Notes: a model not told the origin generated them from the letters alone. Counted from the first letter of the stretch, positions 2,941 through 57,776 are shown. The stretch is DNA of 64,000 nucleotides from Lytechinus pictus (GCF_037042905.1 NC_087245.1:15502001-15566000); one strand, 5' to 3'. Translations and numbers: made by a program.

Positions 2941-3039
2941 CCCCCATCCCTTCTGGGTTCCAATAATTTTAATGCTTTAGTATTAATATTAGCATCCTAC
3001 CACGTCATGTTACTTGTTACGTTAGTGTTATTGACTTAC

Positions 3040-3243: not shown

Positions 3244-3587
3244 GATTGACTTGGTTACAACAAGGCAAATATATTCACGTAAACTGTAAAAATTACGGCA
3301 GATCTCACTGATGATGAGAATTTGTAAGTGACAATGCGAAATTTCGATAAATGTGGTGTTTTTGATGGGCCAATGAAAAAGGAAAACACGGAGTTCTCGT
3401 GTTAACCCATCTCGTCGTTATCTTGAATTACATTTCTTATGTTTGAACCCTTTTCAAATTCCATCCATGTAAGAACAGAATCGTCGAAATAATGAATATC
3501 AAAAAGTAATATGTACCTTACACTTACAGGCCTTGTCATATTTCATCTGTAAAGAGAGGGAGAGAGAGAGAGAGAGAGAGCGGAGAG

Positions 3588-23243: not shown

Positions 23244-24277
23244 TATAGGACCGGGACATTCTAAGGACATTTTGTCATCATATTCCTATTCTTATTCCTA
23301 AGCGCGAGATGAAACTTGTCGATATTCCATTCTGAACAAAGGGACAATTTAATAATTAATCAATAACTTATTTATTATTCTACTAAGCATATTGAGAACG
23401 CGAAATTTGTTAATATTATGGCCTGAAAACTGGACATTTCAAGCATTTCTGAAAGTATGAATAGGATGCATGAGTTAATACATATTTTTAACAATTAATG
23501 CCAGCGCAAATCGGAGCCGAATTTTTTGATAAACTGTCATGAAACGGGGATTTCAAGTAATTTGTTAAAGAGTTAATATTGAGATAATTATAAATAACAT
23601 AAAATGTGAGCGTATAGCGCTAGCTGATACTATTTGACAATCAGACCTGAATGGGGATATTTTGAGAACTTTGTGGAATACACGAAAATGATAGGTATCT
23701 GACAATCAAACAGCGCGAGCAAAAAATGTTAATATGACATTTTTACAGAGCACTTTTTAAAAATAAAATGTTAATCAAACAAAATAATGAAAGTTCGATT
23801 TCCGAGGAGAAATATGTTTTGTATAATGACTTCAAAACCTGATATTTTAAGCTCCATATTGAGCAAGATATGTAAATCATTTAACAGGCAATGCGAGCGT
23901 GAGCGAAAATTTTATAGTAACATGCATTTTTTCCCCAAGTCTTCCCCTCATCTTATTTTTATCACTTGTCTTCTTTATCTTATTTTTTCCTTTTCTTTTT
24001 TCTCCTCTTTTCTTTTCATTTTCTTCTTTCTTTCCCCCTTTTTTTTCTTGTTTTTGCTCCGCCAATGGGGGGGGGGCCGGGCCCCTCGGGCCCCCCTCGG
24101 GCCCCCCTATGCCATGGACCTATTGTAATAGGTTCATGAAACTACCAAGAGTTCGATAATTTTTTTAACCAATTGTGTGCACAGTATGTTGCCCAACATT
24201 TTAAGACTGTACGCAAGTGTCATATTATGTCAAACCAAATCTTTGACGGATCACCAAAGACGTTGTAAATTTTGTTT

Positions 24278-24632
24278 TCACAGTTCGGGTATGACATAAT
24301 TGTGTTCATCGGGTTCCACTTGGGCTGTAATCGTTGTCCCTTGCCTTGCCTGTCGGTTGTGAACTTGATTGACCAATTCAGCGTATGAGCGAGCATGAAG
24401 GTGCTCTGGGTGAGGAGGTGGAACCACACCTTGGTTGGATCGAGGAGGACCAACCCCTTGATAGGAATGCTCAAGTACTGAAGACCTTCCATTAGGATAA
24501 TTCTGTTGATTGGGGCTAAGGTACATGCCCTGATAGGAATAGCGTTGATCACGAGTCTCTCTGTTTAGGCAGGAATAAGGTTTCTGGCGGCCATCTTGTT
24601 CTTTTGAATTCTCCAACGATCGCAGCGTACGT
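24278..24632 (-). CDS. WSC receptor last exon: cytoplasmic tail with multiple Tyr motifs
   Basis: Acceptor ttttcgtttcag, phase 2. RRTLRSLE...PYSCL...SYQGM...SYQGV...SYAEL...NYVIPEL*. Confidence 0.85.
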
Positions 24633-27600
24633 CTGAAACGAAAAGATAGCATGAACAATTGAACATGATAAAGCGAACTTCATGTTTTCTACAACAACAT
24701 ATTTTGTTGAATAAAAAAAAATAAAAAGTCTTCTTTAACTTGGTTGTGCAGTCCCAAAACACAATTTCTGTATGTAACAAAAATATATCAAGCAGCAAGG
24801 GCGTAGGCTGGTTTGAGCACCGGGGTTTGTGGGGGTGCACATCCTGGAGAGGTGGAACTAAAATATGGGGAGGGGGTGCACATCTTGGGGAAGTGGAACT
24901 AAAGTTTGGAAAATCAGTTGTTGAAAGCAGAAGAAGGGGTACAAAATTCGTTTTGCTTGCAAGTGTCGGAGCTCGATCTGCCTCAGCGGGAGCGTTGGTT
25001 GGTTGGTTTTTATTCACGATTAAAAATGCATAAATATAAACAAAATAAACATTACATGATCAAATAATTAAAAACAATATAACAGTAATCAAACTGAACA
25101 ATGCATGTAATACAAAATCGTAGGGATAGACCCGTTTCAGATTGGCTATTAATAGCCAACCTGTTCTTCCCCGGGGGTGCACCCCGCGTGCATGCACCCC
25201 CAGCCTACGCCCTTGAAGCGCGTATTTACAAGTGTAGATAAAATACTTTTATGTTCAGTGGGTGCAATGATGCAATAGTAGCATTGATATGTTTGATGAG
25301 GGCTTAGTTTTCATCACATCGGGTTATCGAGTCGGGTCGGACCCGACGTTTTGGAAATTTAGGGGACCCTTTTCTCGATTGACCGGGTAACACGATTACC
25401 CGACCAGACGCAATAACAATGATGGCACAAGTCGTTTTCGATATGTGTACTACGTTGGATCGTTGGATATATTTAAGTAGAACGAAGTAAGCTAACCCCA
25501 TTTTGTTTCAACTGATGATTTTTTTCTATAAACCAAATTGGATTGTAAAAAAACAATAGAAAAACAAAAACCAAAACAAACACGAATTTTGAGAAAACTG
25601 AGGAGCGGGGACAGCAGTCCTTCCCTATATCCCCAATTGATGGAAGTCCCGAAAGGTAGGTAGGCTTTATCCTACTAAATATTTTGATCAATCCTGTGAG
25701 CGAGATTGTAAATAGACCTACGATATTAATATGTATATTAATATGTTAATATTAATATGTATTAAGTACCCTTGATTGAACCTGGGTTTTCCTTTAAATC
25801 AATAGGCCTATCATCGATGGACGAATAAAATTTAAATCTAGAGAGAGATGTTTATCATTATCATGAAAGGTGATTTTAGAAGTATGTGGGTGGATGTGTG
25901 TGTGTGCACTCGTCTGGATACAAGAGTGGAAATAATTAAGATAGCTCATTTTTTCAAGCTTGATTCTTAATGCCCAAATTTGAACAAATTGGATTGGTAG
26001 TGCAGAACTGAATTTTGCAAATATGATGTATAGGCCTATGTATTTTTCCATTCCTTGTTTAGCCATTCGAATCTTCAAACGAAGTAGAAATTAATCATAT
26101 AGGTATACACTTATAGGGGTTTGAATATTTCGCCTGTCACGGTGATTCCGTATGTAGCCATTGTATTTGAGGCATTCCAACCCCATCCTTGACTAGAAGA
26201 ATTTCTTACTGGTTCAACTTCGGTTTAACAAAGGTTTAGTACATGTTTTTCGACAGGTCACGAGTATTACTCATACCTTGATAAGTATAGCAACGACGAA
26301 ACTACAATCCCATAGATGAGCAGGAGACCACAGATAGTACCAAGTACCACTGCCCATGTGCCTAGGTGAAAAATAAAAGATGAAAAAGATATGCTAACAT
26401 TACTGGCTGTGGTAATTATTTTTTTCATAAATTGTTTAATCTATTTTAGAAACCACTCGTTGGATCACAAGTAAAACACTACATGGAATGTATTATAAAG
26501 CTTTGTGTAAAAGAGGGTCATTGCCGGGGCGGGGGCTGACCATATACATAAAATCATTTTAAATACGAATATTGGCCCTTAGACCATCCATGCGATTCAC
26601 GAAATGCCTGCCAGACAAGACGAAGCCCCCGGAGGGAAAAAACAAAGAAGAAGAAAAAAACATATATCAATGCATTAATGGACATAGCATACACACTTAT
26701 GCAAATGTTGATTGAAATTGTATTAATAATCCTACCTGTTTTAGCAATGACGACCCGTTTGCCAGGGTTGTTGTAATATGTTGTTGACTGTTGAGTAACT
26801 GGTATGTGGGAATAATAATAATATTGGATATTAAAGGGTAACTCCAGGCTGAAAATAATACCAATTAAACAGATTAAACAAAATCAAACAAACAAAATAT
26901 TAAAAATTTCATCAACATTGGACAAGGAATAACAAATTTACGATACTTAAAACTTTGCGTTATTTCGGTGAAAGATGAATGTCTTTATGAATATGCAATG
27001 AGCACACTGATGACGTCATATCCCCGCTTATATATTTTATATATGAAATATTATATTGATTTGAATTTTGTCCTACAAGAATGAGCAAAACTTGGATTGA
27101 CAACTGGTTTAATGTGTAAGGTATTCACTGCTGCAACTTATTTTAGTTTTAAGGAATACGTAATACACTCGTATGAAAATAAAAAGTAGTTATGATATAA
27201 TGCAATAACATTAAAAAATCATCAAACCACCTCATGAATATTCATGCAAATATTGCTAAACTTTAAAATTCAATAGCTTCGTTATTTTGCTATCAGATTT
27301 TGATGAAAAATTCAGCGTTTTACTCGGTTAATTTTTTCTCTTTATTTAGACACGATTGTTTTCAGCCCTGAGTACCCCTTTAGGAAAACGAGTGGCATTT
27401 TACTTGTGCATGGCTCCATCAAAAAGGAAGATTATAAACTACATCATTACATGGAAGCGTTGACTAATGTTCTTGCTAAACAATCTGTAACAAAATCGGG
27501 GTTTCAAGTCAATAAACAGTCATTATAATTTGTATAAAATGTACAGACGCGGAAATCATTTGCTGTTATCTTGCAGTTGAAAATTAATGAGATCACAGTG

Positions 27601-30600
27601 GTCTTTAATTGTGTTTCATGATGATGAAATATAACCGATTTTAAACTGGAGCTAATGACACAGTCACATTTCCCCTTTGACCGCCGTACGGCAAGACGAA
27701 AACGGCCGTTTTAACATTTGTTTGTACCAGCTTCATATAGGTGGTTTAAATAAAAACGGAAAAACAAGCGGACGTTTTCGACTCATAGTACGGCCGCCGT
27801 AGGGGAAATGTGACAGCGCCATAAATCTTCAATTTCGGTTGGTCGTCAACAGGCAAACAATCTATTGAAACACATTGAGGGCAATAGAGCAGTTGAAAAT
27901 ATGAAATTACCCGAAATTGGGGAACTCGTTATCACCGTTGTTGAGTTTTCAGTCGGTTGTGGCCCTCCAGCAGCGTCTGAATCTTGATTACCAGGAAGAA
28001 CTATACATAAAAAAAGTGTTTAGCATTTATTAATGACACTGTTCAAATTCAATTTAATATCAAACTTAAAGAAAGCCGAGAATATCGTATAGACAAACGT
28101 TCTATGTGACACGTAATCCTACTTTGGCAATGATAGCACTCTTTTGATCATATATGGTTAAATCACTGTTATGGATCAAGCTTAATGCTACATACGAGTC
28201 TATACCAATGTGATTATCGAACTATTATCCATTTAGTTTCAGTCTATTATTTTCAATGAGGGTGATGACAGTATATAGGAAACGTACTCAAGCTTTCGTA
28301 AAACCATACACCTATGATGCGCCATCTAACGTTCAGGATGATACTCTTTTGGTCACATTTTGCTTTTTTTCTCATTGTGTGATTGATTGTATCTTTTTAT
28401 TTCCAATTTAACATAACTTGAAGGGTGAATGCAAATATAGAACACGAAACAGAAAAAAGAGCCCCTGACATAGGGAAAGCACAGCTTGTTTATGTGAGTC
28501 ATTATAATGACTCATTAAAATGTAACTTTTCTTCAATGAAATTTAGATTGTAATTAACAAGGTTCAACAGAATTTAAAGAATGCTAATTGAATACAGTTA
28601 AATTCTTTACGCTATACACTATTAAATGAAAATTAAAACAATGTATCATACCCCTGGTATATAAAATTAGAAGAAAAAAAACTTAAAAACGCATAAAATA
28701 AATTAGTTAGACAATGTGATATCATCAAGCTTTATACAAGCAATACATTGCTTCCATGAATCATGGTGATGGCATTGACAGTTTGTTATTTTCAAATTGG
28801 GAGGAGGCAGTGTATACCCATCAAAGCCAACATATTATTTACTTCAATCTGATACTGCGATGTTATGTTGGCAAGGTTGTTATTCCTTATAACATTTTGA
28901 TTTTATCAGGCCAATGCTATTTCATTGTTGTTTCCACCATCTATAGTTAATAATTTTTATTTTCTATTCAGCAGGTGGATGGGAGTGAAAACCCTACAAA
29001 CAATGTTACGCAATACATGACGTCCCATGTTTGGAGTTTTTTTTATGGCAGCGGTGGGATGCGGTATAAGTTCAAGCCGAAATCTTGTTGGTTTTTCATG
29101 TTTTGTTTTCTTGGGTTCGATTACAAGCAGTTGCATAAAATGAAATAATAAAATAATTGCGTATTATGATAATAGCAAATGTTTACATAGCGCTTTTCCC
29201 AGAACGGCTCAATTAAAGCGCTTTACAGCATATTATAACCCCGGTCATTGGATTCATTTCAATCCCGCACGAAAAGAGCACAATTTTCACTCCTTGGGGA
29301 GCATTCATCGCAGCCTCATTAAGGGAGTGCCCTAAGCTGACGGTACTTCGTGCAGGAGTCTTTAATGGGCATTATTATTATTATAATTTGCTCAGCACTT
29401 TTTTTTTGTTTTGAATAATATTTTTATTTTCTTCCTCTTTCAAATCAATAAGTTTACAATCATAATTCATACAAATAAAGATTCTGTGCATGTATACAAT
29501 AAATAAACAATCAAACAAATAAATATATCAATATCAATGAGATTACAAATATTTTAGAATGATTACAAATGAAGTTAAACTGCCAAATTTCTCTTCTATA
29601 ACAATGTGAAAGCGGAGGGGAAAACCCATATCAATCGACAAAGTAAAAAAACATACTTTGTAAAAAATGACTTTTTTCCCTGAATAGAATAGAAATAATA
29701 TCTTTTGCACAAATTAATTGTGCAAGAATAAAAAAGGATAAAGGATTATTTTAAAGGTTAATTAGAGGACTTTTGTTCAATTAGATGTCTTAAGGACGCC
29801 CTCAAGTAAAAAGAGCCGTCATTATTTTCATATAGTAATGTGTATCATAATAATAAGTCGGATACTTACGATCAAAAACAGAGAGATCCGCTACCCAGAT
29901 ACATGATGATGTTGTGTTTGTCGAACAATAGCAATTGGTGATATATCCACTTGCCCCTGTCAAGTTACTCGGGTCGGAAGTAGCATTATTTCCACAGAAA
30001 CATTTACGAGGCATTCCTTCGCAGTACATGGCGTAAGCATATTTACCAATTATATTACAGGTTACTTTACACAGTTCAATAGTCATATTTCTAGGATCAA
30101 TATCACAGGAATATCGATGTTCCTTAAGTGTTATTGATGTAACATGTTCCCCGATGTAACAACCATCTGTATATAAAAAAAAAGGTTTAGAAATTAGGAG
30201 AATCAAAAATAAAAGTAATAACCGTAAAACCCAACAACAACAACAACAAAGAATCACAGCCGACTCAAAACTCTCTTGTTGTTTTCATACATGTATCTTT
30301 ATATTATTTTTGTGCATGAGAATCTTGCAGTCAGGTTTATGTATCCTTCTCCGAAATAAGACAACTCTCCATAATAACATCAGGGTCGTCAGGTGCTCTG
30401 AAATCCAATATTTCACTGCACTGGTTTTGTTTCCATTCGGTTTCTTCAGCTCCCTCGCAATCTACGCCTGGCATCTCATTTCCATGAGCAATACACTATA
30501 GACAATGACCCGTTGTTCCAAGTTTCCTTTATTTCATTTCGACTAAACATATTGCACAAAGTGAAATAATAACCATACAAATCAATACAAAGGAATATAC

Positions 30601-33546
30601 TATATGTAAGCAATACGACCATACCAAGGATACGTTTTTCGGTAAGAAATAAACAATCATTATAATCATGCAATTATGATATTAACAATGAGGGGAAAAA
30701 TACATGTCGAACAATCCTCGATTAAACATCTGCAAGGCTATTTTTATTTATCTTTGTGATATAATAAAAGTTGAGGAAATGGAGGGATCCAATGAAAAGC
30801 AGGGCTTGTTAAATACAAGGCTTGTACATTAAAATCCTTTTCAAAACACATTTTCAGTAATTTACATTGTAATTGTTTAATAAACACATTTTAGTATCAA
30901 TTTTCATCTCGATTTCATTGAAAATCGATCAGCAAGATGTTCACTAACTCATGTAGGATTTTGACATCATTGATATCTGAATTCATTCGTTGCAGTCATA
31001 CCTTACTTTTCTTTTTTACACATTGTATGCATGCATTGAATTGCAAGCAGCACAAGTACATGAAGTTAGTAATTATTAATTATTTAAAGTTTGCTTCACG
31101 CTCCCAAAACAAAAGGAATACTATCAAAATATACTAATACTCATAGAAAATGAATTGCCTGTAATAATCGAGAATTTTCGTTGATAATAATATTCAATAG
31201 GCTCTAACCGATTTGTATCTTGAATAGTAAAATATAAATTATTGAGTACGCTAATTGCGAGGAAAAAATAGAGAATATACGTGTGATGTAATTTTTTTAA
31301 AGTTTTGTTAGTGTATGGCTTTCAATAATTTTAATTTAAATTCAATAATTTGCTCAGCTGCTGCGCAGAAACGAAAGTGAATGGACTGAATGGTACCCCT
31401 ATAACGAGGAATATCTCGCCATGCAATCTGAGTAAACGTATGAGCTTATTATGAGCATAAGAAAAAACATCATTTTCGTTATTTTCAACAGAATAATTGT
31501 CAATACTGAGTCGCTAATATGTGCATTCAATATAACTTTTGAAACGCGATTTACTGCTTTTGGCATAAAAGCAAATTGCATAATTTCAGTTTAATTGTCT
31601 GGGTATAACAACACTATTCGTATGCAGAGTCCTAAAGATAGTTTTACGATCAGAAATATTCGCCATATAGCTCTAGTTTTGAAATTTATGAATAAAAAAA
31701 CCCCACACATTTATGGAAAAAGCAATATCGAAAAATGCATTATGTAGAAAAACCGATGTCATTAATATAAGAATGCAACCATCTAACTTTGGCATCTGTT
31801 TCATAAAACTGTTCGTAGAGTTTATGAACGACTTGTATCCCTTATAAGAAAATACATCAACACCAATTAAAATCTGGTGTGCGTTATTTATCACAAGAAA
31901 GGATCACCAGTCGCTCGTAAAGTCACGTGAATACAAACAGTTTTATGAAACACCCATCCGGTATAAAGAAAGAGAGAAAATAATTTTTGGAATACCCATA
32001 TTTAAAACGATTCATTTTTATCATTCAGTCGTTAAATCATTATTGAAAATAAAACTCAAGTCTGGTTGGGTTTATCCATGTAGGAATTCATAATCATCAA
32101 TATATCAAAAGTTAAAAACAATATTGCATGATAATTGTATTTTAGCTATTCTATATGAAGAGTTTTATTCCATAAGGAGCTTAATCCACTTGTAGCGTTT
32201 TTCTGTAAATCAAGGTTTTTTCATTCACCACTTTTCCTTATCCATATAGCTTTTTTATTTTGACATAAACGATTGTACTATCATCTCAGATTAATTAAAT
32301 GGTTTTTTTTTATCTGGCATTCAATATTAATTTTTGATAATTTTGTGAAATTTTACTTTTCATGGATTTTAGCTCCTTTTGGAATAAACCCTTAATTGAA
32401 AGTCTATATTTTTGCCAATTTAAACATGCTCAATATTGGAAATTGAACACAAAACACATAAATATTGCTATAAGAGTACATCATATCTGATGTTTATCCA
32501 TTGAAAATTTTAAAAGGAAAACAAACCCGTCTTTTCTAAGGACGGTTACTTTTTGATGTTGAAGGTGCTAAATCCAAAAGATATTCAGAAAAATAGTAAA
32601 ATTATGTTATTTTCATCAAACTTGGCAAAAATAGTGTAAACTTGTATCCACAACATATACCTCAAAATCTGAATGCAAACTTCATGTAAAGTAGTAAAAT
32701 TAACAAATTTTAAATGACCCGGTAGCAGATTTAGCACCTTTTGGAATAAAACTGTTTTGAATTTAGCTCCTTTTGGAACAAAACTCAAATTTGCAATCAA
32801 TTTTTTACCAACCTTCACATTGTTTCTTTCAAATGCGATATGGTGCATTTGATTCCCAGGTCTAAGATACATAATTGTATTAAAAAAAAAAAAAATTTGG
32901 TCACTGGATTTAGCCCCTTTTGGAATCAAGCTCTTTATATGTACATGCATGATGCTCATGTGAAGGTATGCGAACAAACTTCCAAATGAAAACTTCGTTA
33001 GTCATAATGAAAGATTACACTCAGAACCGAAGTAAAACAATACAAAAAATAAGCCCTCATACTAGCCCGTACAACCATAATTATTGTCAAAAAAAGAATG
33101 TGATTATATGACAGAAATGGTCGACAATGAAGGTAGAATGGGTCTACATGTACCCCCCAAAAAGAAAAGAGTTGAATTGTTTTCAAAGCAGTAACATTTC
33201 CTTTTATATAATCTGAAAACAGGGTATTTTATCTTTATTTTCATTACTACTTTTCTAAGGTAGGGGTTCATACGAGCCCCCCGTATTACCCCCTGTTGTA
33301 TAGTAACAAAAGATCGAAACGTAGAATGTTTTTTATTTTTCATTTCTACAGGATATGTCGTGTTATCAAGTAATCTTATCATTTCGAAATGTGATCCTGG
33401 AAACCTAAAATATCTTGAAAAAATAAAAGAACATAATAACACTCAAATCAGAACATGATATTGTAAAACTTACCAATGTGAAGAACTTGGGGGGAAAAAC
33501 CCAGTATTATCATTATACTTATTAAATGTATATATACGAATATCAT
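24278..33546 (-). CDS. WSC-domain type I transmembrane protein, 320 aa, 6 coding exons
   Basis: Exons 33474-33546 (signal peptide MIFVYIHLISIMIILGFSPQVLHI), 29870-30166 (WSC-like), 27911-28000 and 26736-26798 (S/T-rich stalk), 26277-26361 (TM), 24278-24632 (tail). All junctions are GT-AG with phases 1,1,1,1,2, giving 963 nt open to the stop. Confidence 0.85.
24796..25215. mobile_element. MITE, inverted sister of 16302-17108 with only ~2 minisatellite units
   Basis: Same TIRs caagggcgtaggctg / cagcctacgcccttg and the same internal flank (ttgaaagcagaagaagg...gtgtcgga). Confidence 0.8.
26277..26361 (-). CDS. WSC receptor transmembrane exon
   Basis: GTWAVVLGTICGLLLIYGIVVSSLLYLSR. Acceptor tttttcacctag, donor GTATGA. 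Confidence 0.85.
26736..26798 (-). CDS. WSC receptor stalk exon
   Basis: 63 nt, phase 1-1, VTQQSTTYYNNPGKRVVIAKT. Confidence 0.7.
26835..27379. mobile_element. Kolobok-like MITE (TTAA target)
   Basis: ttaa|agggtaactccaggctgaaaa...ttttcagccctgagtacccct|ttag. Confidence 0.6.
27911..28000 (-). CDS. WSC receptor Ser/Thr-rich stalk exon
   Basis: 90 nt, phase 1-1, LLPGNQDSDAAGGPQPTENSTTVITSSPIS. Confidence 0.75.
29870..30166 (-). CDS. WSC domain exon
   Basis: DGCYIGE...MTIELCKVTCNIIGKYAYAMYC...CFCGN...CYC...C fits the WSC pattern (GCY...MT.E.C...C...Y.YA...C.CG). 297 nt, phase 1-1. Confidence 0.88.
33474..33546 (-). CDS. WSC receptor signal-peptide exon
   Basis: ATG, 24 mostly hydrophobic codons, then G|GTAAGT. 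An upstream acceptor at ~33590 implies a 5' non-coding exon. Confidence 0.75.
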
Positions 33547-36500
33547 CAAAAATGTTTTAATCAAACTTGTTAGCTAGCGGTTTATTGCTCTGAAAATTAT
33601 GACAAAGGTTTTATCACACTTACTTAATGGAGAATTTTCAGATCGAGAAATCTGAACTATCAATAAAATTGATGGTAAAAATCGGAACATCATGTAGATC
33701 TTTCCACTGCAGTGACACATAAAATTTTTTTATCATCGCCAACACTCCTTTTCTATGCCGATACTGCTTGCTAAATAGCGTCAATTGAATTCTTCAGAAG
33801 TAATGTCGTGCGATTATTGATACTTTTTTACTCAAGTATAAGTAAAACTGTAGTTTCGCTTTGGAATCTCCCGATTTTATATAAGTCATGAAGATAAACC
33901 TTGAATAAATAAAGCTAATAAACTAAAGTGATGCAGGAAATGACAAATCAAACAATCACGAATGAGGAAGAGCTTTTTGTGAAAGGGGAATATTTTATCT
34001 ATGAGGGAGTATGTCTGCGGATCATCAGGTACACACACACACAAACACGCACCCCCACACACGCACACCCTCACAAAATCGATCACATACTAAAAATAAA
34101 CCAGAAAATGTCAATTCGATATATTGCCATTTCATTGTGTAACAATATCTGTTTCTGGTCTTGTTTGTTGATGTTGCGTAGGATTCCATGATCCCCGGTT
34201 GGCGCACGTCAGTTTAAGGAATTACTTCCTAGCTAAAATTATAATGTAAATATTTGGCTTTCAAGAATGAATCTTCACTTCCTGAATTTAATTCAAGAAA
34301 GATCAGAGGTTAAATCTCTGATACCCCATTTTCCGTGATTAATTTTGTAATTTGATTTTCCTAGATTCTCGATATCAGAAGACAAAACATAGAGATAAAG
34401 AGATAGAGAACAACAACAAAAGATTCACCCAGACAAAAAGTTTGGTTTAAAACTAACAATTTTTTTTTTATTGATGCAGGTTTGGGGAAATTCCTTCAAA
34501 AACTATATATTTATTAGAATTTTAAGTTTTTATTTTTTTTAATCTTTGTGACGTCAAATACGAGCAGCTGCCCCTCCTGGCTACTGATGTTTCAAGCAGT
34601 TACCCGCTTATTAAAGCTGGCCCTGCACTTTTTTTTTTTACCCGACTTACCATTTAAATTGCTTTATTTATTACAGTTTTCAGCAAAAATGTACTCATTT
34701 ATGTTATTGTTATTGCATTTTAAGTTTTTCATTTGTTATTGATTTATGAATAAAATGCAGAAACTCCTAAAAAATGTTACGTTTTTTTTCACTAGCAGGT
34801 TGATATATTTTGTCTGTTGGTACAATAAAAACCATTTTCGATTTTTTGAGAAAATGAAATTTCACTGACTTTCTTTATTACATGATATGTTAGGAAGCTG
34901 CTTGAATATGACGTCACAAATGAGAAAATATTATTGTAATAACTTTTTGAAATCTTTGATGGATTTTCCTCAAACCTTCATCAATATTTGTTATCATATT
35001 TTTGCTACTTTTACAATAAACGTTTTGTCAGGGTGAAGTTCCCCTTCAAAAAGAAATCTACTTGGACTGTCATTACCCAAACCTTAGACTATTCTTAATT
35101 CCAATGAGAACACTGAACTTACTGACCATACATTTTACAAGACAAAGCAACAACAATAATTATAATTCCCACTTAAAATTTCGTGGTGTCAGCTTAATCT
35201 CAGACCCTGATTGAAACTTTGATTTACAAGTGGGTCTTCACACAAGACTAGCACTTATACAACTTTGCTGTTTCAATTTCACGAGGGAGGGAACTCCTGT
35301 GAAAAGGTCACTGTGCTAGGGACTTCAGACCATGGTGGAGGGTTTCCATAGCAAACTTGTGTCAACTAGGATTAAACTTTATTATATTCCAAATTAAAGC
35401 CGTTTTTGAAGTAAAATGGATACTGAATTTCAATTCTACTAAAAGGGTGAACCAAAAGCTGAGAAACGAATTTATGCATTTCCAGATTGTGCAACTACCA
35501 GGTCACTATGCAGTGGCATAAACTCGGTCTGAGGAGGGGGGGGGGGGGGGTGGTAGCAGGCATTGAGCTGAATACTTTATTTTGATTTATTTCTAAGGAG
35601 GGGTACCTATTTGGTGATTACAGTTTATACGTAACACGTATTTAAAAAATGAATTTCTTGATGGATGGTTCCATTGTTTTCTTGTAAATTCAACTTTTGA
35701 CTTTCAGTTGGGTTTGCTGACCCATGGTATTGATTTGCGAGAAAGTGATGCGAGCGAGCAAATATTCAGTAGTTGGAAGATATTTATGTTGATCAAAATC
35801 CTGTTATAGGGGGTATAAGTATATGATGTCTTTATATATAACTACATCTAAAATTGCTACAGAAAGTGCAGTGAGGGAGCCTTTGAAATGCTGCTATCAG
35901 TCGTATTTAATAATATGCACAAATACTGAGCGGAAATGATGAGCCACATCAAAATGGATGGGATCGTCAAAAGATAATTGGAAATGTTGATATTTAGTGC
36001 TTTAATGGTGAAACATTCACCTGTCCCTATAAAGTGATTTTCATCAGTAACTCATTGTATATATATCCTGAATCATGGGTTGTTATCATGCCTCCATCTT
36101 AGTAGCAGCACCAGGATTTTTAAGATAAAGGGGCAAAAGAACATTTCTTTATTGGGGGCAAAGACACACACAAAATTTTGTGCCTGTCTTACAACATCGA
36201 GAGCGAAGTGCGAGCTTAAGTTTTGAACATAGGCCCTACTGTCTTGAAAATGGACCTGTTAAGGACTGTTTACAGTGACTCGCGAAAAACGATACATCAC
36301 CAAATAAAATAATGCGAGCGCGAAGCGCAAGCTAAAAATTGTTAAACTCTTGAGATGATATACTTTTTGTAACCATGAACATGATGGGTATTTTGCGAGC
36401 GCGTAGCACGAGCTAATTTTTTTTTTTTTTATATTTAAGCACCCTTTTGTATAATGAACATGTGCAGGATATGTATCTTGCTAAAAACATATGATGATAA

Positions 36501-45099: not shown

Positions 45100-47328
45100 T
45101 AAGGTTAAGGGAACAAGTATAAGATGTTCATTGTGAATTTCAAAAAAAAGCCTGTATATGGCTTTAGTTGTAAGATTGGCATCAATGTCCTGACAAGCAT
45201 AATAACAAAACAAGGAAGTGAGTCTTAACTCAAAGCAAATTTGAGGAAGAATGCCAGACACATCTTAACTCATAGTCAACTAGAACAGGGCAAAGACCCT
45301 GTGCAAAGCCTATAAATTACAGAATTCACCAGTCAAAAGATTAAGATGTTTCTCCACATAGCATAAATGATGTCATTGTGGCTGATAAATGATTGTATTA
45401 AAGATAAATCTTTAAATTTTCATGGACCCCCCCCCCCCGGAAAAAATCCCAGTAACCATGAGAGCCAGCAGGTATATAGTGGTGGTAATGTCCATTAATT
45501 AAAGGTAAAAGACAGTAGTTGCAGCAAAGAATTATTTCATGAGAAAGTCTTTTAAATCAGAGTTAATTGTCAAAATATTATCATACATCTAGATCTGGTA
45601 CATTAATGTAAACTTATCTTTGTAAAATCATGAAATGTTAGCTCAAAATTGATAATTCTGATGCTCACTAACACGGAAAAGCATATGTGGGACAATGTAT
45701 CAATATTGCTTAAAAAAACACCTGACATTTGATGGAATTCCGTGCTTATTTTGCTAATTTCTCAGCAATTACGCATTTTCCTCTAGAGCTATTAGGCACA
45801 TATTTTTTATTTATACATACAAACACTATGGTGGTAATTTTATTGGATTCTGTTCGATCTCATTTTGAGATCTTTACCATAACTGGTGTTTATCTTTAAG
45901 CATTGAAAATTCATCCTTGTGAAAAGCCATAATTTGAAGCTACAAATTTTCAAATACCATCCCCACAAAAAAATACAAACTTCACTCATAATCTTGGGTA
46001 ATGAATAATTCAGGCATGTAAATGATTGCTAAATTTTATATTGAGATATCATTATTGAAAAAGGTAAACATATAATTTCATGAAAATTAAATGCTTTCAA
46101 ATATTTCTATTTAGTGCATTTTGGCAAAGAAAGAGCTATTCCCATTACAGGATAGATATGAAAACTTTTGTTACATATAGCCTTCTATTGCAAGTCAAAT
46201 AATGGAACTTTTGTCTCATATCATAGGTATTTAATACTTTTACATATATTGGATATTAATTTTTGTTAAACCTTTTAGAATATTTAAATATTAAAAGTAG
46301 GGTGTTTTATCCAATAAAGGTGTATTTGGTTCGCATGATTTACCTGTGCAGTATGCGATCATATTGCACGAAGCACGAAATATCTGATGAATATATATCC
46401 AATAGACTCAGGTAGACTACTGTATAAAACTTGACGTTCATTATGGTACCATATTGAACAGTCAAATGCAAAATATACAGTCATGTACAACACACACAAT
46501 AATCAATAAATTGTGAGGCACAGCTCAGACTGCATTGAAACTAAATGACGTCAAAAGAGCTCAATGTATGTCACATTTCTATGATCAAATTGATCTCATG
46601 AAGTGAGGCCATATTAACCGATTGAAGTGAGTGATATAATTTGCTCAATCAATTTCATGGAATACCAGAAATAATCCACTTGTTGAGGCCAATATCGATT
46701 TGTGCGATAACACCCCCAACTCTTGGAATATCTCTGGTATCTCATTCTGAGCCATCCAATATAATACAAATATTCTATTTCAGATTGGTTGCGAACTACA
46801 TGCTTACACATAATATTCCAATTTTTTAATAAAACTGTTCTGTGCACAAAGAATAGTGATCTCACAAGCAGGATATGGCCCCACAATAAGAAATCTTCAC
46901 ACTGATGAAAGCAAAAACATACACAAAGCAAAGGAATACCAGAATGAATACACATGCAAAAGAAACTTGACCTTTCTTCCCAAATTATATTCCATGACAT
47001 CTGCTCCTGCAACAATTGCTCCTATGGAAATGCTGTATTTACCCAAACATAAACACTACGCTCAAATCAAAGTATAATCTTAATCCTCACTATATTCTTA
47101 ACCAAAAACCCCATCACACCGCTAACTCTAACCCTATATCTTCAGAAAAATCAATGCAGGAGCAAGTGTCTCGGTTCAAGCGAATGTTAGATCGCCCCCA
47201 AAATGAAAAAAATGCAATTTAAATGTCTTGCAGTGATACGTATACATGTAAGTCATTACACATGTAGTGTTAGATGATCAATGTGACCTTGCAACTTCTG
47301 GCCAACTTCAAAACGAATCAACTTGGTA

Positions 47329-47754
47329 TCATAACTCATCATGCCTATCATCTCCACTGTCCTGAACCTTCTGCTCCATCTCTTTCTCTTCCACTTGATT
47401 CAGCTCTTCTTTCCTTCCCTCCTCCTTTTCCAACCGTGATTTCTTGTCACACACGTGGATGCTCTCCGGATCATTGACATACACAATTTCGTTATGCCCT
47501 ACATCCTCCACACTGTTACACTCTCCTCCCACGTCACTCTCTGCCATTATCCATCTCTCCTCTGGGTTGTCAAAATGGTTCACACCGAATTCCTGGAAGA
47601 TTCCTTTGGCTACAAACTGCTTGTACCAGAGTTTTTCGATGGTTGGGTCGTGTTGGTACCCTTTGTTGAACTTCTCAAAGGCCTTGTCACCATACTGCAT
47701 GATCATGCGGGAATCTATCTGATTGGTACCTTCTGGATCTAAAACATCGAGAAT
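47329..47754 (-). CDS. JmjC gene exon 10 (degenerate EF-like loop, acidic tail, HDEL)
   Basis: ILDVLDPEGTNQIDSR...DSGDDRHDEL*. Acceptor ccttaaaacag. Confidence 0.88.
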   Translation of the reverse strand: MLDVLDPEGTNQIDSRMIMQYGDKAFEKFNKGYQHDPTIEKLWYKQFVAKGIFQEFGVNHFDNPEERWIMAESDVGGECNSVEDVGHNEIVYVNDPESIHVCDKKSRLEKEEGRKEELNQVEEKEMEQKVQDSGDDRHDEL

Positions 47755-50700
47755 CTGTTTTAAGGAGAGATTTGGAGATGGACAAAAAATGATAAAATCA
47801 GATGGATTCTTCAATCTGACTAGTTGCACGCAGTCAAAAATCATACCTCAACCACAACCAAGATCAAAAACATATTGCATATTTAACTTATATTATTTTT
47901 GAAAACATTCATAATCTAAACAGTCATTTCTATATTCATTCATGAACCAAATTGAATCCTGTATTAATCTATTGGATATGTAGGTTAATGTGATGATCAG
48001 TGACCTTCAAGGGCTTTGATCTTCAGAAACCACAATCAGATAGAATCACATGACACTACCATATGCACATATAAGCCAAATTTGAAGTTTAAACATTAAA
48101 AGGTTCTTCATCTATTGCAGGATTACTTAGACATCTTTGAAAAGTAGATAACATTACCGGAACCATCTGAGGTAGCATTTAGAATCCATTCTTTAAAACA
48201 TAAATCACTATCCATGCTTTTTAATCATCACACAGTTCTAATGAACTATAATAGCTATGGGGAAGCTGATGCTTTAATACAGTACAAAGTTGGTAAGAAC
48301 AACAAGCATACAAAATTGATAATTTCCTCAAAAGAATATTATTTCTGTGATATATTTGGAAGGTTATTTCATTCCACATCGCTTGTTTTTGATAAAAGAG
48401 GTATATCATACAAGTTAGAGAACAAAATGGTTAATTTTGTTGTTGCTGTTGCAAAGTCCCAATTTTGCAACATCTCTTTATGAGGGAGTGGGTTGTCTTC
48501 ACAGAGCTGCCAAAATGTATTTTGCATTTTCAGTATTCTTATCCCCCAAAATCAGTATTTTGACAAAAAATCAGTATTTTTACCGTGTGAGATAAATATG
48601 CAGACCTGCCAACCTCTGGAAATGAATAACTGTATTCTGTGATAAGAAAAAATGTATTTTTCCCCAAAAAAGTGTATTTCATAATAAAATGCTTGGCGCA
48701 CTCGGTCATCGCGGCGCTCAAGCTGCATGCAAGCTAAAATGCGCACTGCTCTTGCAGATGAAAAAAAAACCCATTAAAACATGTGTATATCTTCACCCTG
48801 GTTTTAACAAAATGATAAAAAAAAACAAGTTACCTGAAATTACATTGATCTAATAACCATATTTGTGTACATTTTATGAAATAGAGACATATAGAGATTA
48901 TTTTTCTCAATAAATTACGATTTAGTAACAAAAAACGTAACGTACTAAATACGGCTAAAACGTACTGGTTGGCAGGTCTGTCTTCACCCTCACTACAGTG
49001 CGTATAAAAAAACCGGGACAGATTTGAAAAGTCTATAAAATTTTTGTTTCAAATAATGATGTCTATATTTTGGTGTTAATAGATGCTCTAAGGTCTTATC
49101 TTTGAAATGCAATTTAAACAAATAAATTTTATTCATGCTTGAGCGAACACGGGACCTTTTTGTTGGGGGTTCAAAAAGAGGCTTGCGCCAGAATTGCAGA
49201 ATATGTGTAATACAATGATCAGACTTCTTGCTAATCAGGAGACTTCCTCTTGACCTTTTCATTATCTGTGCCACAATTTTCGAATTATGCTGTCAAAATT
49301 CATTTACAAAGTTATTTATTTAATTGAATTATTTTGTTTTTTCATTTAAACTTCTCTTACCTTTAATTTTCCTTCATAAGTAACTGAGAAAAGAAGTTTT
49401 TTTTGTCAACCCAAGCAAGAAGATTTGAATTATTAATTGGGAAAACTTGTGATTATTCAAATCGTTTTATTATGTGAAACACATTATGTTATGTACCTTT
49501 AAAAGACATGAATCTATTTTTCAATGGGTCATTAATTCCTTGACCAAGTTTAATTGCTTGACAGGAAACACAGGAAGGGATTCATGTCTTTCAATGACAA
49601 TGGTGTATTGAGTCAATTTTGAAGGAGCTAGATATGGCAGATCAGGTAAAATGTATTAAAAAGTTGTGAGCGAGCGAAGTGAGCACGCAAATATTCCCAC
49701 TTTTTTTAATTACAATATCAAATTTTGTGATAGATTTTGACATAATAAATATTCAGAAAATAATATCATATTTTACTTTCTATCTTTCCTTTTATTTCCT
49801 GTCCACTTTTTTTCTTGGTCATGATTTTTTTAATTGAGGGGGGGGGGGGCAACCCGAGCGCCCGCCCATCTGTGTGGCTTTGTTCAAAAGGCATCATAAC
49901 CTTTGTGGCACATAATGAAAGGATTTGAATAAAAAATCCATGCTCTCCCATAATTCGGTTGAAGAAAAATAATTTTAGCTTGAAGAAGGAATATTCAAAG
50001 CTAACAGAGAGCATATTAAAAAGAAATAACAGAATAATTCAAGCAAATACATAGATCTGAAAATGAATTTTGACCGCATGATTTGAAAATTATGGCAAAG
50101 AAAATGAAAAGGTTAAGAGGAAGTCTGCTAATTAGCAAGAAATCCGATCATCATATTACTCATATTCTGCAATTCTGGCACAAGCCTCTTTTTTAACCCC
50201 CAACAAAAACGTCCCGTGTTTGCTCAAGCATGAACAAAACTAATTTTTTTTAATAATATTTGAAAGACAAGACCTTAGAGCACCTATTAACACCAAAATA
50301 TAGACATAATAATTTGAAACAAAAATTTTATAGACTTTTCAAATCTATCCCGTTTTTTTTTTATACGCACTGTAGTATGCCAGTCCATTTGCTCTAATTC
50401 ATATGAATATTAAAACTTTCATATATGCAGTTGTTAAATTTTGCACTAAAAACTGATTTCTTTTTAATGACAAGGCATTAGCGATGTTGTGTCTCGCCCA
50501 GTTGTGAAAATGACCAGAAATATCGCGATTTGCAAGGGCACGCAATAGGGATTGTATCAAAAGTTCATTGTGAAATAACTGGGATGGAATAACATTTGTC
50601 GTATGAGTCTTCCATGTAAACTTTAATGTTGACCTCAAAATGACCTTTGACATTAACATGTGACCTCCAGACACAATGCAGGTCTCCTAAGTACAGCTAC

Positions 50701-53700
50701 AATCCAAGATTGATATGAAATTGACTTACGGTTGCAGAGTTATGTGTCATAATGTTTGTGATGGACGGACGGATTATATTTGGATCCCCAAGTCTCGACT
50801 TAACCTCTGGTGGGAGAGACAAAAAGGGGTCCAATCAAATACTCACCTCTTTTGCAACCTCTGTACTCCCTCCCAAGTAGAAGGTGTAAATCTTAATGAA
50901 ATCAGATCCACTGAATGGTTGTGATGGATTGTGACCTCGGAGCATTGTGAGAGCGCCCCTACAGCAATTAAAAATAACAATAAATATACTTATGATCACA
51001 ATATCTTACACTTATTTCATCATAATCTTTCAACACAATATATGCAGCATCATTGTCCTGGCTTATTAAGCAGTGCATCTTGTGAGGCATGCACCTCATA
51101 CCACCCCAAAGATTTGTATTTGTGGAGCGACCGACTAGGGGAAGCTGTGTGAAGGGGACCCTATCCTCCAATGGTAGGATTTTTTTTGTATTTTAGATCT
51201 GTACGAGGGCCCTCAGTCGGCTTTTTGTTAGCTTTTCGACAATGTAACGTATGTTGTAAACAAAATGTAACTTATGTTGCAAACAAAATAGCTTACCAAA
51301 TAGCATCCTTGTCAATGTGGTGATATTCAAAATCTCCCTTGTTGGAGGCATCTGAAGGGTCAATGACCTCTACTAGATCCTTCAATGTTTGTAGAGGTAA
51401 GGAATCTAACTCTTTTACCGTGATGTAACCTTGTCCGTTGGTATCCAAAATCTCCATAAACTGTACAATGAAATGGAAGTAAACAATAGTAATTACCAGT
51501 AATATCTATGTTTCTTCATGAGATCTCTATGTACAAATTGAGACATTTGACAGTGATGTACTTTCATTCATTGGTATCCATTATACTCTTTATGAGATAT
51601 ATGGGAAATTTATTATGATTCATAAATATCATATATATTCACTTCTGAACACCCTATATCAAAAGATATAGAGAAAGGAATAATTCCTAGAAAAAAAAAA
51701 TGTGCAGTTCGAAGAAATCAGTGTTATATATAATAACATTCTTTTGAGATTACAGAGATGGTGAATTGACCCTATATTCCATGACATAACATTGTCCTTG
51801 TGAAAACTTGGGAGTAGGAGAAGCATGAGAGTAACATCACACACCTTCTGTAATAGCTCTATGGTCTAGCAGTGGCAACTTCACAGCTTTAATTTAATTG
51901 CAAACTTTATCGTAAGGTGTGTGATGGGATTAACAGAGGACACATATTTCATCTTTATAGCTCAGAGACCTTACCTCCAAACGTTGTTTTACAAGTAAGT
52001 CTTCATCATTTAGTTCTCCCTGCAGAAAATAACAATAAAATGAGTTATCAATATTTGAAATATTGCATTGTTTTCAGATTGTTTGATGTAATGTGCAATG
52101 TTTATCAGATCAGTCACCTTAAAGCATAAACCCTTTGAACAATAAATAAAATAAATAAATAAATAAGACAATCAATAAATCTGAAACAAAAAAAGATCGC
52201 GTTGCAACATTTACTTTTTCCTTCAAGTCTTGTGCAACTTTTAAGACTAAATTCGCAACACGGGGGGTATGCGGTTCCGAAGTTACATTACATTTTGTAA
52301 ATGCACGCAAGACCCAAAATTACTCAAAAACGTGATTTCATATACAAATCCAATGCAAATTCACTAGGTAGCCAAAATTCGCAAATTCATCATTTTCATT
52401 TTTACTGAATAAAAGCAATAGATTTCATGTTATTTATGACTGCAATAGTGTTGAAATTTGCACTATAATCTAAAAATAGCCCGGGATATATAGGGTTAAA
52501 CTGCAAAGATGGAGAGCATATACAAAATATACATACTTTTGAAATAGTAAGGTTATTAAGTCTTCATTGCATGATTAAAACATTTATTGTAGACTAATAG
52601 AATTTTTGAAATTAAAACAAAATTAAGCTGTCTTAGTCCCCAACTCTTATTAATTACAATAATGCACCAATAAAACAAATCACCATGGCAATTTTTAGAT
52701 GTTTTTAATTAGGTTTTTTTCATTGGGGGGGGGGAACATGTCATATAATAATCTAAAGTGCATTACAAATATGATAAACTATACCTGTATAAAGTTATCT
52801 GTGAATTCTCCCAACCAAATCTTGCCAGTTGTATCAGCTATGGTTTTCATGACAGTTCTGAAATAGAAGAAAGTTTATTGAATTATTTGGTAATAAGAAT
52901 GAGAAAATACATCCTTGAAAGCTCGGAAGTCGATTGATATAGTTATAAGGCTTGTGTAGTTATGACGCTGGCGGCTGCATAGGCCAGCATCAAAATTCAA
53001 TCAATAATTGATGGGTAAGCAGCAAGGATGCCACAGGCAGGAGAGTAGAAGGTACGGTAGGGGGGGGGGTATCTGTCACAGAATAATTTTTTTTTTTTTC
53101 AATTGATGTCAAATCAAAATTTGTGATTTTGTGCCAATATGTTTGTCATTTTCAGATCGTTCCATGCAAGCCTTGTGTGTGACTTGCGGGTGACTTTTTT
53201 TGTTCCCCGCAAGTCACCCACATCGACAGTATCTCGCACATATTTCACACACAGTTGCCTGCAGGAGCGCACGCAAGTACGATTAGCACACAGAAAAGTT
53301 TTGAACATGCTCAAACCTTTGTAGCAACAATTAGCCGCAAGGCTTGCACGGAATGATGTGACAGGGTCTTAGCGATATGAATCCCTGTGACTTCATTCTT
53401 GGTGTAAATTTCATCTTAAAGACACATTGACCAATGCATTATTTCACAAGAACAAATACCTCAACATGTGCACATCCATATGACCTTGTGAGAGCTCTCC
53501 GTGACCGCTGTAGCGCCACAGAACGGATGACTCGCTCATGGGTTGGAAAGTATTGCCTGAATCTTCACAGCCCGTAGGGTCAAAGGTCAAAAAGTGAGAG
53601 AACCAGATGGATACAGCACTGTTCATATACCCTCTTGATCTCACCTGATGTGTATAGCCTAGAATATTGAAATATCAATATGAGAATTAGATTGTACATT

Positions 53701-56700
53701 TTATCCATTATTTGTCTTATTTGGCACTGTAATAATATGTTACCCAGGTTGTACGTGTCAACATAAAAATCTCAATCTCATTCTATATATCATTTCTTGT
53801 CAAAGTGTGTGAAATGTGGGAATAAATTTAGAATAAGAAAAGATGTTAAGTACAAACGGATTGTGGTATACAGATAATGGTTGCCCTAAACCAAGTAAAG
53901 TGCAATGATTCAAGAAGATAGTCAGCAATGACAATTTGTCATTTTTTACAATTACCATAGTAATTGTCTGGAAAAAATGCATTCCAGACAATAACAGACA
54001 AGGATTTTCCTTTATTATCAGGAGGTGGCAATCTACTCAGTGCTAGCAACTTTCATCAGTGTGTAACAAAATCTGAAAGGATAATGCTGGAGCTTTTTAT
54101 AACTATTCCAAAGGTACTGTGCGTGTATAATTCTCACTAATGTGCTTAATGTGTATTGTTTGTATACTAGAAACTTACCGCTAGGCATGTAGATACAATC
54201 CCCTTTTTCCAGAATCACCCTGTCAAACACCAGGTCCTTGACGTTACTATGTATGTCATAGTCTACGTCATCTACATTGACACCCGAGTATCCTCCAAAC
54301 TCAAAGCGAGAGTCCTCAGACATATAAAGCCGTTCTTTCTGATATAAACAGGTGTATGGGGAAGAATGATAGGTATAAAGTACCTTTACCAGAAGTAAGA
54401 TGCGCATCTTTCATGAAGGAAAAAAAACACACCTTCATACAGGGATTCAAAATTGATGTTTCTTTCACAGGGGCTATCTTACATTTGTTCTCCACAGTTT
54501 TGTATATGATTAATGTAAGAAGAAAGCGATATTATTGGATTCCTGCACTAAGAGACAATACCGACTTTAGTAAGGTGCCTACTGAGAATGATGTAATTTG
54601 TCAACCATCAAAACTGCCATGATCATATAATAACACAGGTTTTTCTAATGCCCATTTTGAAATGTTTTTACCTGTAAAAAAATAAATACATTCACAACAA
54701 CTATCATTATTTCCCCTAAACAATAATTTGGCACACAAGGTGTTCAAGAAAATAGCGGGAAGAGAGGATTATTTCACAGAAAACTCAGAAACGCTTTATA
54801 TATTATTGACACTGGATGAGACCCAGTGTACAAGTTAATTGGAACTATCACTTCTTACATACCAGTGAAAAGAGGCAAACGTTTAAAGGGAGTGGAGTTT
54901 TGGATATGTGGCACAAAATGGAAGGGGCAAGGTGAGCAAAAATTCTCCTTCACCCCCCCCCCCCAAAAAAAAAAAATAGAAAAAAAAAAGTTATGAACAT
55001 CTGTTTAACCAAAATATCAGTTCCAAATATTCAAGGAAACTTGATAATTACAATGTTAAATAACATATTTGTAAGGTTTATAGTCATAAGTATCACCAAA
55101 CACCCCACCCCCAACCCACACCAGTGTGCTTACCTGGATAGGATCTGCAATAAGCCATTGCTTGGTCCCATTGTATACACAGTGGATGGAGCTGTATGGA
55201 TCGCGGTGAAGCAGAGTCTTCCCTCCTCGAGAACTCAGAAACAGGTGGACTTCCTTAGGATTCAAACACAACACAATCAAAGAAATCAAGGATTGTTGAC
55301 CATAGTGATGCTGCAGTCACATTTTCCCAACGTCGGCCGTAAGGCGAGTCGAAAACAGCCGCTTTATTCAATTTTATTCAAACCACCCATATGTAGCTGG
55401 TACAAAAAAAATTTAAAACGCCCGTTTTCAACTCGCCATAAGAGCAAATATGACTGAGGTATTAGCAACAGCATTGGCATACATGCTGTTTTCTGTATCA
55501 TTCAACTTTAAAAGTATGATCTTTTTTAAAAGCAAACATACATTTTTATAGCCTGTTTAAATTTCTCTTCACCAGGGGCCCGTTTCATAAAGCTGTTTGT
55601 AAGTTAAGAGCGACTTTAAGAATGACTGGTGATCCTTTCTTGTGGTAAATGACGTTCACCATTATTTGTTGGTGATTATTTAGCACATAAGAAAGGATCA
55701 CCAGTCATTCTTAAAGTCGCTCTTAACTTACGAACAGCTTTATGAAACACCCACCTGGTCTAAAGGCTTACGTTTGATGAGCAGTGAATTTTGAAGAGAA
55801 TAGGGAGGAAATTAGGTCATTAGGCTGGAAACATCCTAGTTATTAAAATTCTGTTGAAGATTTGTGCAACAAAGCACAGCACAAAGACTATAGATACAAT
55901 TAGGTCAAGTTCTCCACTCAAATCAACACACATTGCACAATACCAGAGACTGAAATATATTGTTGAAAATGGCAGACAAGCTTATAAAATTCTAATGATT
56001 TTATAAATGGTTTCAAGTGTCAGTTTTGTCTCAAGAAACATTTTTTTTCTCAAGAATTTGCATCCTTAACTTAGTTCAGGACCAATGGGGGCCATTTTTA
56101 AAAAATCTGTTACAAGAAGGTGAGATAGGAATCGGGTTGATCTCAAACCCGTGAGCTTTGCTTTCCTGGTAATTTGCATGAAAGAGGGGTGGACCATGTT
56201 ACCTAGAAATACCCAGGACTCAAAGCACAAAGCATAGCATAGCAATCGATCATAAGGCTGGTATTTACAATTGATTGCATTGGCTAAGATGTGCTATCAA
56301 TTGCACAAATTGTCTATACAATCAATTGCTACACTTTGTGTTACTGGGCACACGTAAAACCCTGTCCCTACCTGAACACCCTGTGCCAGGGATCCACAGG
56401 TTAGGAATGGAGGAAAGGCGATGTCTTTCTCCATGGGAGTAGGTATTTGTGATATGATGTAACCATCTAGGGTCTGGTAGCGATCCAAGAAGTTGCTGAT
56501 GGTGTCTCGTCCCATCCCTCCCACACCACTTGGTATCCTAGAGTTGTCCTCACTCCTACAACAGATATTCAAAAGAATGATTAATACTATTCACACTGTT
56601 AATTGAATAGACTCAGTAGTGCTCAATCATGAAACAATAACAGATTAATACTTTTATTTCTTTTCTTTATTTTATGATACCGGTAGTTAAAAAAAATAAA

Positions 56701-57655: not shown

Positions 57656-57776
57656 CGTGATAAATTCTGGAGGAGAAAAATAGAGATTGAATTTTTCGTA
57701 AATTTATTTGATGACATGATAAACTAATAGAGTTTTTTATTCAAGTTAATCAGCTCAGGTAAAGCTACATACCATT

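Follow-up and report, generated by a model that had tools for sequence, protein, structure and literature searches.

The Lytechinus pictus genome (812 Mb) carries, in a 64,000-nucleotide stretch at C1:15502001-15566000 (the window, whose positions we use for this gene), a minus-strand gene that encodes a spliced type I membrane protein with an extracellular WSC domain. We propose that this protein is probably a divergent, single-chain, tyrosine-signalling innate receptor, and a member of a family of echinoid single-pass receptors built from exon modules. The gene is real, and its structure, transcription, family context and motifs are supported. An immune role is plausible, on the grounds that tails in this family resemble the ITAM (immunoreceptor tyrosine-based activation motif).

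Gene structure and transcript evidence

The layout comprises a signal peptide, one degenerate WSC exon with 10 Cys, a 52-residue stalk (27% Ser/Thr), one helix without charged residues, and a 118-residue tail with eight Tyr. An earlier note on this DNA had described the same order (signal peptide, Cys-rich WSC-like domain, Ser/Thr stalk, helix, tail of ~118 residues), and the sequence bears it out. Five of the six exons (30166-29870, 28000-27911, 26798-26736, 26361-26277 and 24632-24278) have clean AG/GT ends and in-frame joins, and the phases run 1,1,1,1,2 when exons are joined by coordinates. The features are as follows.

33624-33770, minus strand: exon 1 favoured by RNA; 5′ untranslated region and signal peptide, phase-1 GTAAGT donor (X1 contig, depth arithmetic and sequence)
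33474-33546, minus strand: exon 1 of the earlier note; hydrophobic frame and good donor, gives 320 residues; probably intron
29870-30166, minus strand: 297-nt exon of a degenerate WSC/PAN-type domain, phase 1-1, with 10 Cys; an X2 contig ends at 29870
27911-28000, minus strand: stalk exon; 90 nt, phase 1-1, Ser/Thr/Pro-rich (splice sites, and depth arithmetic in X1 and X2)
26736-26798, minus strand: second stalk exon; 63 nt, phase 1-1; depth arithmetic fits with or without its inclusion
26277-26361, minus strand: 85-nt transmembrane exon in phase 1-2, free of charged residues; contains YGIVVS (Y-small-xxx-S), with a Cys six positions ahead of the Tyr
24278-24632, minus strand: tail exon and stop; eight Tyr, YSCL-x10-YQGM at 24577-24524, C-terminal DEHNYVIP; contigs of both X1 and X2 stop at 24632 and match without a difference
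24068-24277, minus strand: 3′ untranslated region; RNA contigs reach 24068, first AATAAA at 23376

Four sequencing runs were compared with the window. Two of them, X1 and X2, were taken as RNA on the tool's guess, and their depth is 0 in two repeat-free intron bins. Contigs in these runs end exactly at 24632, 29870 and 33624. Because exon joints are not among the matches listed, we infer co-splicing from depth arithmetic. A 448-nt X1 contig (depth 8.98) accounts for the bin of the 90-nt stalk exon (1.51 seen, 1.513 expected), suggesting that tail, helix and stalk are joined, with 93 or 156 letters remaining for the WSC exon. An X2 contig similarly appears to join the WSC exon to 81 stalk letters (0.76 seen, 0.758 expected).

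For the 5′ end, the X1 contig at 33624-33770 carries 77 further letters. Both candidate first exons fall in one bin, where X1 depth is 1.04; 33624-33770 alone predicts 1.045 and the two together 1.66; X2 depth is 0 in the bin of 33474-33546. A first exon at 33546-33474 is therefore probably wrong, as X1 leaves no room for it. The intron-containing model of the earlier note was reproduced at 320 residues with the same phases, but its first exon is disfavoured by these depths. With the RNA-favoured exon, which has a hydrophobic leader and a consensus donor, translation would start at the ATG at 33693 or at an in-frame ATG at 33720, giving 319 or 328 residues. A short reading frame (33640-33738), begun by an upstream ATG that is out of frame, overlaps the signal-peptide exon.

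The ectodomain

The best Pfam match of the 29870-30166 exon is PF01822 (WSC), at 16.3 bits (E 0.011) and hence below the gathering cut-off of 27.8. Against a profile built from 30 L. pictus WSC exons it scores 16.0 bits, a value reached by 0/5000 shuffles, with the reversed sequence at -2.8. In the ESM Atlas the first match is at 0.92, and all ten of the 10 best family matches agree on WSC. Hallmarks of the domain are eight conserved Cys and a CGG motif (PMC9024836, in part). Seven of the eight canonical Cys are in register here (invariant in a 31-row alignment), including both pairs described as the PAN core (PMC9024836, in part); the sixth is shifted by two, there are two extra Cys, and the CGG motif is gone.

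As evidence for a PAN/Apple-type WSC fold, the model made on the WSC alignment is circular (pLDDT, the model's confidence score, 57), and a single-sequence model (pLDDT 39) is unusable. The weak, alignment-based model best matches the Kremen1 WSC domain (Z 6.3, root-mean-square deviation 3.1, 77 aligned), with the Wsc1 domain second (Z 6.1); Foldseek returned no match for it at E <= 0.001 (E >= 0.72). As the model was made on a WSC alignment, the fold matches do no more than agree with the sequence result. Homologues of the exon were found among 0/17 candidates, a PDB search gave one chance match, and a search of its own genome returned only itself. The one match among 1.84 billion representatives was rejected as an unrelated chance tandem-repeat protein, and a WSC-profile search was flooded by fungal multi-WSC proteins. 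The ectodomain is, as judged from the profiles and Cys register, a fast-diverged WSC domain. As to ligands of such domains, PMC9024836 (in part) reports no glycan binding shown for the Wsc sensors, a single beta-glucan lectin, and a protein ligand for Kremen.

A WSC-exon contig in X2 (29870-29984) differs at 7/115 letters, versus 0/531 for the tail and 3′ untranslated contig (24102-24632). The pattern possibly reflects a highly divergent ectodomain allele, as seen in one contig at depth 5; the assembly holds no close paralogue of the WSC exon.

A family of WSC receptors

A PF01822 scan of the genome gave 139 WSC matches from 144 candidates, 123 of them over the cut-off and 98 on C17 (counted from the table); the exon studied here is not among the 139. 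All 30 of the best WSC exons have the same architecture, a single phase 1-1 exon. At C17:14.27-14.31M lie tandem genes, read by hand from sequence alone, each with a signal peptide, one 297-nt WSC exon, a short stalk, an 85-nt helix exon and one tail exon; no SRCR match was found in 20 kb. Exon sizes of 297 and 85 nt are common to these genes and to the C1 gene. Thus single-WSC receptors are ordinary in this genome. Annotated echinoderm relatives mostly combine SRCR-WSC, stalk, helix and a Tyr-rich tail, and five are WSC-only, some of which look like truncated models. In S. purpuratus, the five most frequent partners of SRCR include WSC (36; PMC10855680, in part).

These results bear on several points of the earlier note. 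Its 'stand-alone' receptor is so in having one WSC domain and no other ectodomain, but this is not unusual given the tandem genes, and its premise, that the WSC domains of animals belong to multidomain proteins, fails for this genome. The idea of a lone gene is rejected: the genome-wide paralogue check returned 139 WSC matches, and receptor genes with a single WSC exon lie in tandem, though the WSC exon itself finds only itself. The proposal of a lineage-specific, exon-shuffled receptor fares well, as the 30 WSC exons examined are uniformly phase 1-1 and one tail family follows both plain and zeta-like helices, in proteins whose ectodomain is WSC, SRCR-WSC or mucin.

The C1 gene is alone on C1, with its family on C17. 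On this chromosome-scale contig, WSC clusters lie near 11, 14.3, 22.4-23.4, 25.1-25.3, 27.3-27.4 and 29.3-30.0 Mb, with ~98 WSC exons overall; between the WSC exons of C17:25.1-25.2M there were no usable exon calls. A second tail class on C17 carries repeated LYA[MKI]PDK motifs, suggesting that C17 is a receptor cluster with several signalling types.

The transmembrane helix

The helix of the C1 protein contains YGIVVS, a Ser variant of Y-small-xxx-T, and so has the motif of FcR-gamma, CD3-zeta and CD28. The Y(small)xxxT motif is the hydrogen-bond staple of the zeta-zeta dimer and is common to many immune receptors (PMC13107469, in part). YxxxxT drives CD28 helix dimers, with Ser variants occurring (PMC7378745, in part), although its role in CD28 dimers is disputed (PMC13107469, in part). 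With Cys at -6, Leu at -10 and no charged residue, the helix has neither the acidic residue of FcR-gamma and CD3-zeta nor their disulphide Cys one turn above.

Two further helix exons were found in the genome.

C17:20908997-20909078: second helix exon, from a degenerate DNA pattern search
C17:13312156-13312237: third helix exon, from a PF11628 genome scan; scores 20.5 bits on PF11628; Phe for Tyr; an ITAM tail follows

Taken alone, the second exon matches PF11628 (TCR_zetazeta) at 26.4 bits, over the cut-off of 25; 10/10 of its PDB matches are FcR-gamma or CD3-zeta, and it ranks first of 24 genome-wide PF11628 matches. Of its sequence, YGI[IV]x[ST] was dictated by the DNA pattern, whereas the LLY-x-RL that follows was not selected for. 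All three helix exons (C1, C17:20.909M and C17:13.312M) are phase 1-2 with a terminal Arg codon. A six-helix profile retrieved five FcR-gamma chains at E 0.0012-0.031, with the next match at E 4. Against a profile of the other five helices, the C1 helix scores 19.7 bits (0/5000 shuffles), compared to 11.6 for the best of 20 other helices.

The second helix exon lies in an apparent gene at C17:20.904-20.910M (L061:5140-7014, L041:206-287, L062:809-1043) with a signal peptide, a mucin exon, the helix and a five-Tyr tail. Its helix is the most FcR-gamma-like in the genome; the mucin exon is single-copy, and no globular ectodomain was seen. The helix and ITAM tail at C17:13.312-13.313M (L065:1657-2955), with no ectodomain exon found in ~21 kb upstream of the helix, may belong to an adaptor-like protein or to one whose ectodomain is encoded farther away. 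Exact pattern matches on C11 and C20 were discarded as chance, being without exon context, as were 19/20 of the one-mismatch matches inspected, one of the 20 having been read on the wrong strand. Matches to a second DNA pattern were outnumbered by those to its control (199 vs 357), and three of four further PF11628 genome matches checked are not exons. A homodimer prediction for the helix scored 0.06, the alignment not being used.

Among echinoderm WSC proteins, 24 with a helix were retained from 39 echinoderm-type rows, the 15 without a detected helix being dropped. Only 3/24 (P0127, P0159 and P0171) combine an ITAM-like tail with a [YF]GII helix, and these same three are the best matches to the helix plus tail of the C1 protein (z 6.9, 5.3 and 4.5; next 3.1). 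For the helix plus tail of P0127, 4/4 PDB matches are FcR-gamma (E 0.073-0.74), and another of the trio has a weak PF11628 match (E 0.039). A search of the L. pictus genome with the P0127 helix plus tail found nothing. P0159, an S. purpuratus model with NACHT joined to SRCR-WSC-helix-ITAM, is probably an annotation fusion of two neighbouring genes. On balance, a working zeta-type dimer helix in the C1 protein is slightly more likely than not.

The cytoplasmic tail

The tail contains a degenerate ITAM, YSCL-x10-YQGM. Across seven family tail loci the second half-site ends in Leu or Ile in six and in Met in one, with a spacing of 9-10, versus 7 in FcR-gamma. The tail at C17:13.312M reads YMDL-x9-YETM and has eight further copies on C17; the copies carry KPYMDL-x9-10-YESL/YETL-type pairs and, towards the end, a motif of the DEHxYE[LV]P type. 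Three of these copies sit behind WSC exons and a plain Gly-rich helix, which implies that helix type and tail are separate modules. The C1 tail aligns collinearly with its relatives at 17-33% identity; it is 118 residues with insertions, versus ~70, and keeps the KPY lead-in. In global exon-to-exon comparison with six family tails it reaches z 6.1 (0/1000 shuffles), and the best of 13 control tails z 3.2. A search with the tail returned itself and three weak rows, and the Pfam ITAM model matched 0/8 tails. All told, the tail probably belongs to the echinoid tail family.

Tails at C17:9.676M (L076) and in P0159 and P0171 contain two ITAM-like units (internally repeated tyrosine motifs), recalling multi-ITAM chains. 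The tail exons at C17:6808784 and 6861760 are 100% identical and 53 kb apart, a recent duplication or an assembly duplicate.

Comparison with known systems

FcR-gamma (FCER1G) and CD3-zeta (CD247), the PF11628 chains, share with the C1 protein the Y-small-xxx-T/S helix motif, YGIV being identical to FcR-gamma, and with its relatives an ITAM-type tail. The helix exon of FCER1G likewise ends just after the helix (PMC13668506). In contrast, the C1 protein has its own WSC ectodomain, a Cys at -6 in place of Asp, a Leu at -10, a degenerate ITAM, a tail in one exon rather than three, and no PF11628 score. FcR-gamma and zeta have been traced only to bony fish, ~435 million years, whereas Syk-type kinases are far older (PMC4016189, PMC6189171, both in part). 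CD28 and CTLA-4 are also single chains with one ectodomain, a short stalk, a YxxxxT/S helix and a Tyr-motif tail, but their ectodomain is an Ig domain and there is no sequence match.

The sea urchin SRCR-WSC receptors share WSC, Ser/Thr stalk, helix and Tyr-rich tail, and differ in having SRCR, which the C1 protein lacks. The amphioxus BbLcLRR and ITAM-R, and oyster Ig receptors acting via Syk, are invertebrate single-chain receptors with tyrosine motifs, BbLcLRR also having a WSC domain. Unlike the C1 protein, they have leucine-rich repeat (LRR) or Ig ectodomains, and the passages that describe them mention no zeta-like helix. PMC13344425 (in part) lists SYK/ZAP70 sequences of two urchins and describes ITAM-Syk signalling in oyster and amphioxus.

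Proposed mechanism

In the receptor that we favour, the WSC domain would bind ligand. The helix may dimerise in the manner of zeta-zeta, held by hydrogen bonds between Tyr and Ser, and the Cys at the position of the FcR-gamma Asp possibly helps the dimer, as the motif suggests. By analogy with established ITAM biology, clustering would lead a Src-family kinase to phosphorylate the tail, and SH2 proteins would be recruited, either a Syk/ZAP70-type kinase to the ITAM-like pair or PI3K to the YxxM half. YxxM is a PI3K-recruiting motif. Vertebrate adaptors pair with a separate receptor through an acidic helix residue. With ligand binding and signalling in one chain, such a residue would not be needed.

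Contrary evidence and alternative explanations

Several observations weigh against this assignment. Met, rather than Leu or Ile, closes the second ITAM half. The tail fails a local-profile test (1.1 bits, 282/2000 shuffles as high), and the global test was run only after that failure. Alone, the C1 helix matches neither PF11628 nor any PDB chain, and the 24 PF11628 matches across the genome do not include it. The pattern behind the second helix exon was derived in part from the C1 helix itself; without that exon, the profile score of the C1 helix falls to 14.4 bits (1/5000 shuffles), a thin margin over the best other helix at 12.8. Across the genome the pattern is not in excess (52 vs 63 for the control), and just one real exon came from the 20 matches inspected (20 of 49 one-mismatch rows, chosen by look). 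That exon, in genome context, drops to 23.9 bits (E 0.045), under the cut-off, and the probable tail of its gene is without an ITAM. P0127, P0159 and P0171 are close kin, not three independent cases, and by Atlas features the P0127 helix plus tail has no FcR-gamma/zeta cluster among the matches listed. Finally, two raw-read runs (6% sampled, unspecified tissue) have next to no reads on repeat-free exon bins.

Given the YQGM half-site, output may be weaker or routed to PI3K, which leads to the alternative of a damped or decoy family member. Such a protein would keep the dimer helix while its ITAM decayed, and would modulate or inhibit, e.g. via SYQGV or SYAEL sites or through heterodimers with active members. 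The insertions that lengthen the tail, the failed local-profile test and the isolation of the gene on C1 fit this idea, and an inhibitory LRR-WSC-transmembrane receptor is known in amphioxus (PMC8211107, in part). However, the first half-site and KPY lead-in are kept, and by inspection no canonical immunoreceptor tyrosine-based inhibitory motif occurs among the eight tyrosines; we regard a damped member as unlikely. Somewhat less probable is a non-immune, Kremen-like co-receptor, whose WSC domain would bind a protein ligand, whose tyrosines would serve endocytosis or adhesion signalling, and whose zeta-like helix would be coincidental. Kremen1 and Kremen2 likewise have a WSC domain in a type I receptor; the Kremen1 domain is the top fold match and binds Dkk1 (PMC9024836, in part), and the C1 protein misses PF11628. 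In Kremen, kringle and CUB domains flank the WSC domain. The scan from exon 1 to the helix found only the three in-frame phase-1 exons used, in agreement with the earlier note, and no SRCR match; the gene has no kringle- or CUB-sized Cys-rich exon, and a Kremen orthologue is rejected on that ground. Moreover, helix motif and ITAM co-occur in the relatives, and no conserved homologue was found, unlike what is expected of a developmental gene.

The earlier note had likened the protein to yeast Wsc1. Its order of WSC, Ser/Thr region, one helix and tail is indeed that of ScWsc1-3 (PMC9024836, in part), the putative fold class is likewise WSC/PAN, and the Wsc1 domain is the second fold match. A functional analogue, i.e. 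a matrix-anchored mechanosensor with a spring-like Ser/Thr stalk, is nonetheless very improbable, as the stalk is short, the CGG motif is lost, urchins have no cell wall, and the intron-module build matches the urchin family. The representative-protein, PDB and candidate searches gave no fungal match and no other homologue of the domain; with the likeness limited to domain order, fungal origin is rejected. The likeness is best read as convergence on a common type I layout.

Ancestry and significance

The zeta-like helix is likely convergent, and convergence is likelier than descent because the match spans ~16 hydrophobic-helix residues under a shared packing constraint. Shared ancestry of the echinoid helix-plus-ITAM module with FcR-gamma and CD3-zeta is possible, if doubtful. 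On that account the module would first have served single-chain innate receptors of the deuterostome ancestor as their membrane and tail half, vertebrate adaptors would have lost the ectodomain and gained the acidic residue that pairs them with ligand-binding chains, and the C1 protein, with its WSC ectodomain, would be a living but divergent representative.

ITAM receptors of invertebrates are already known, as are the SRCR-WSC genes of urchins (PMC8211107, PMC10855680, PMC13344425, all in part). We found no description of a zeta-like helix outside vertebrates in the literature (openly accessible, mainly titles and abstract openings), and it may be noted elsewhere. The word 'ITAM' is absent from the main text of PMC10855680 on urchin SRCR genes, and in PMC11810900 the relevant terms occur in the reference list only. 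Echinoderm receptors with ITAM tails, some on a zeta-like helix, are candidate upstream receptors for urchin Syk, and through the same family one can test how the vertebrate adaptors may have arisen. Were the likeness convergent, a Tyr-Thr/Ser dimer helix and an ITAM would have been paired twice.

Other features of the window

3028-3417, minus strand: Rpn13/ADRM1 exon (PF04683, E 1.8e-13)
46614-57703, both strands: exons of probable JmjC/cupin-like genes (PF13621, E 0.00055 at 54036-54410; leader-bearing exon at 57347-57700)
58908-60080, minus strand: reverse-transcriptase fragment of a retroelement (PF00078, E 5.3e-13)

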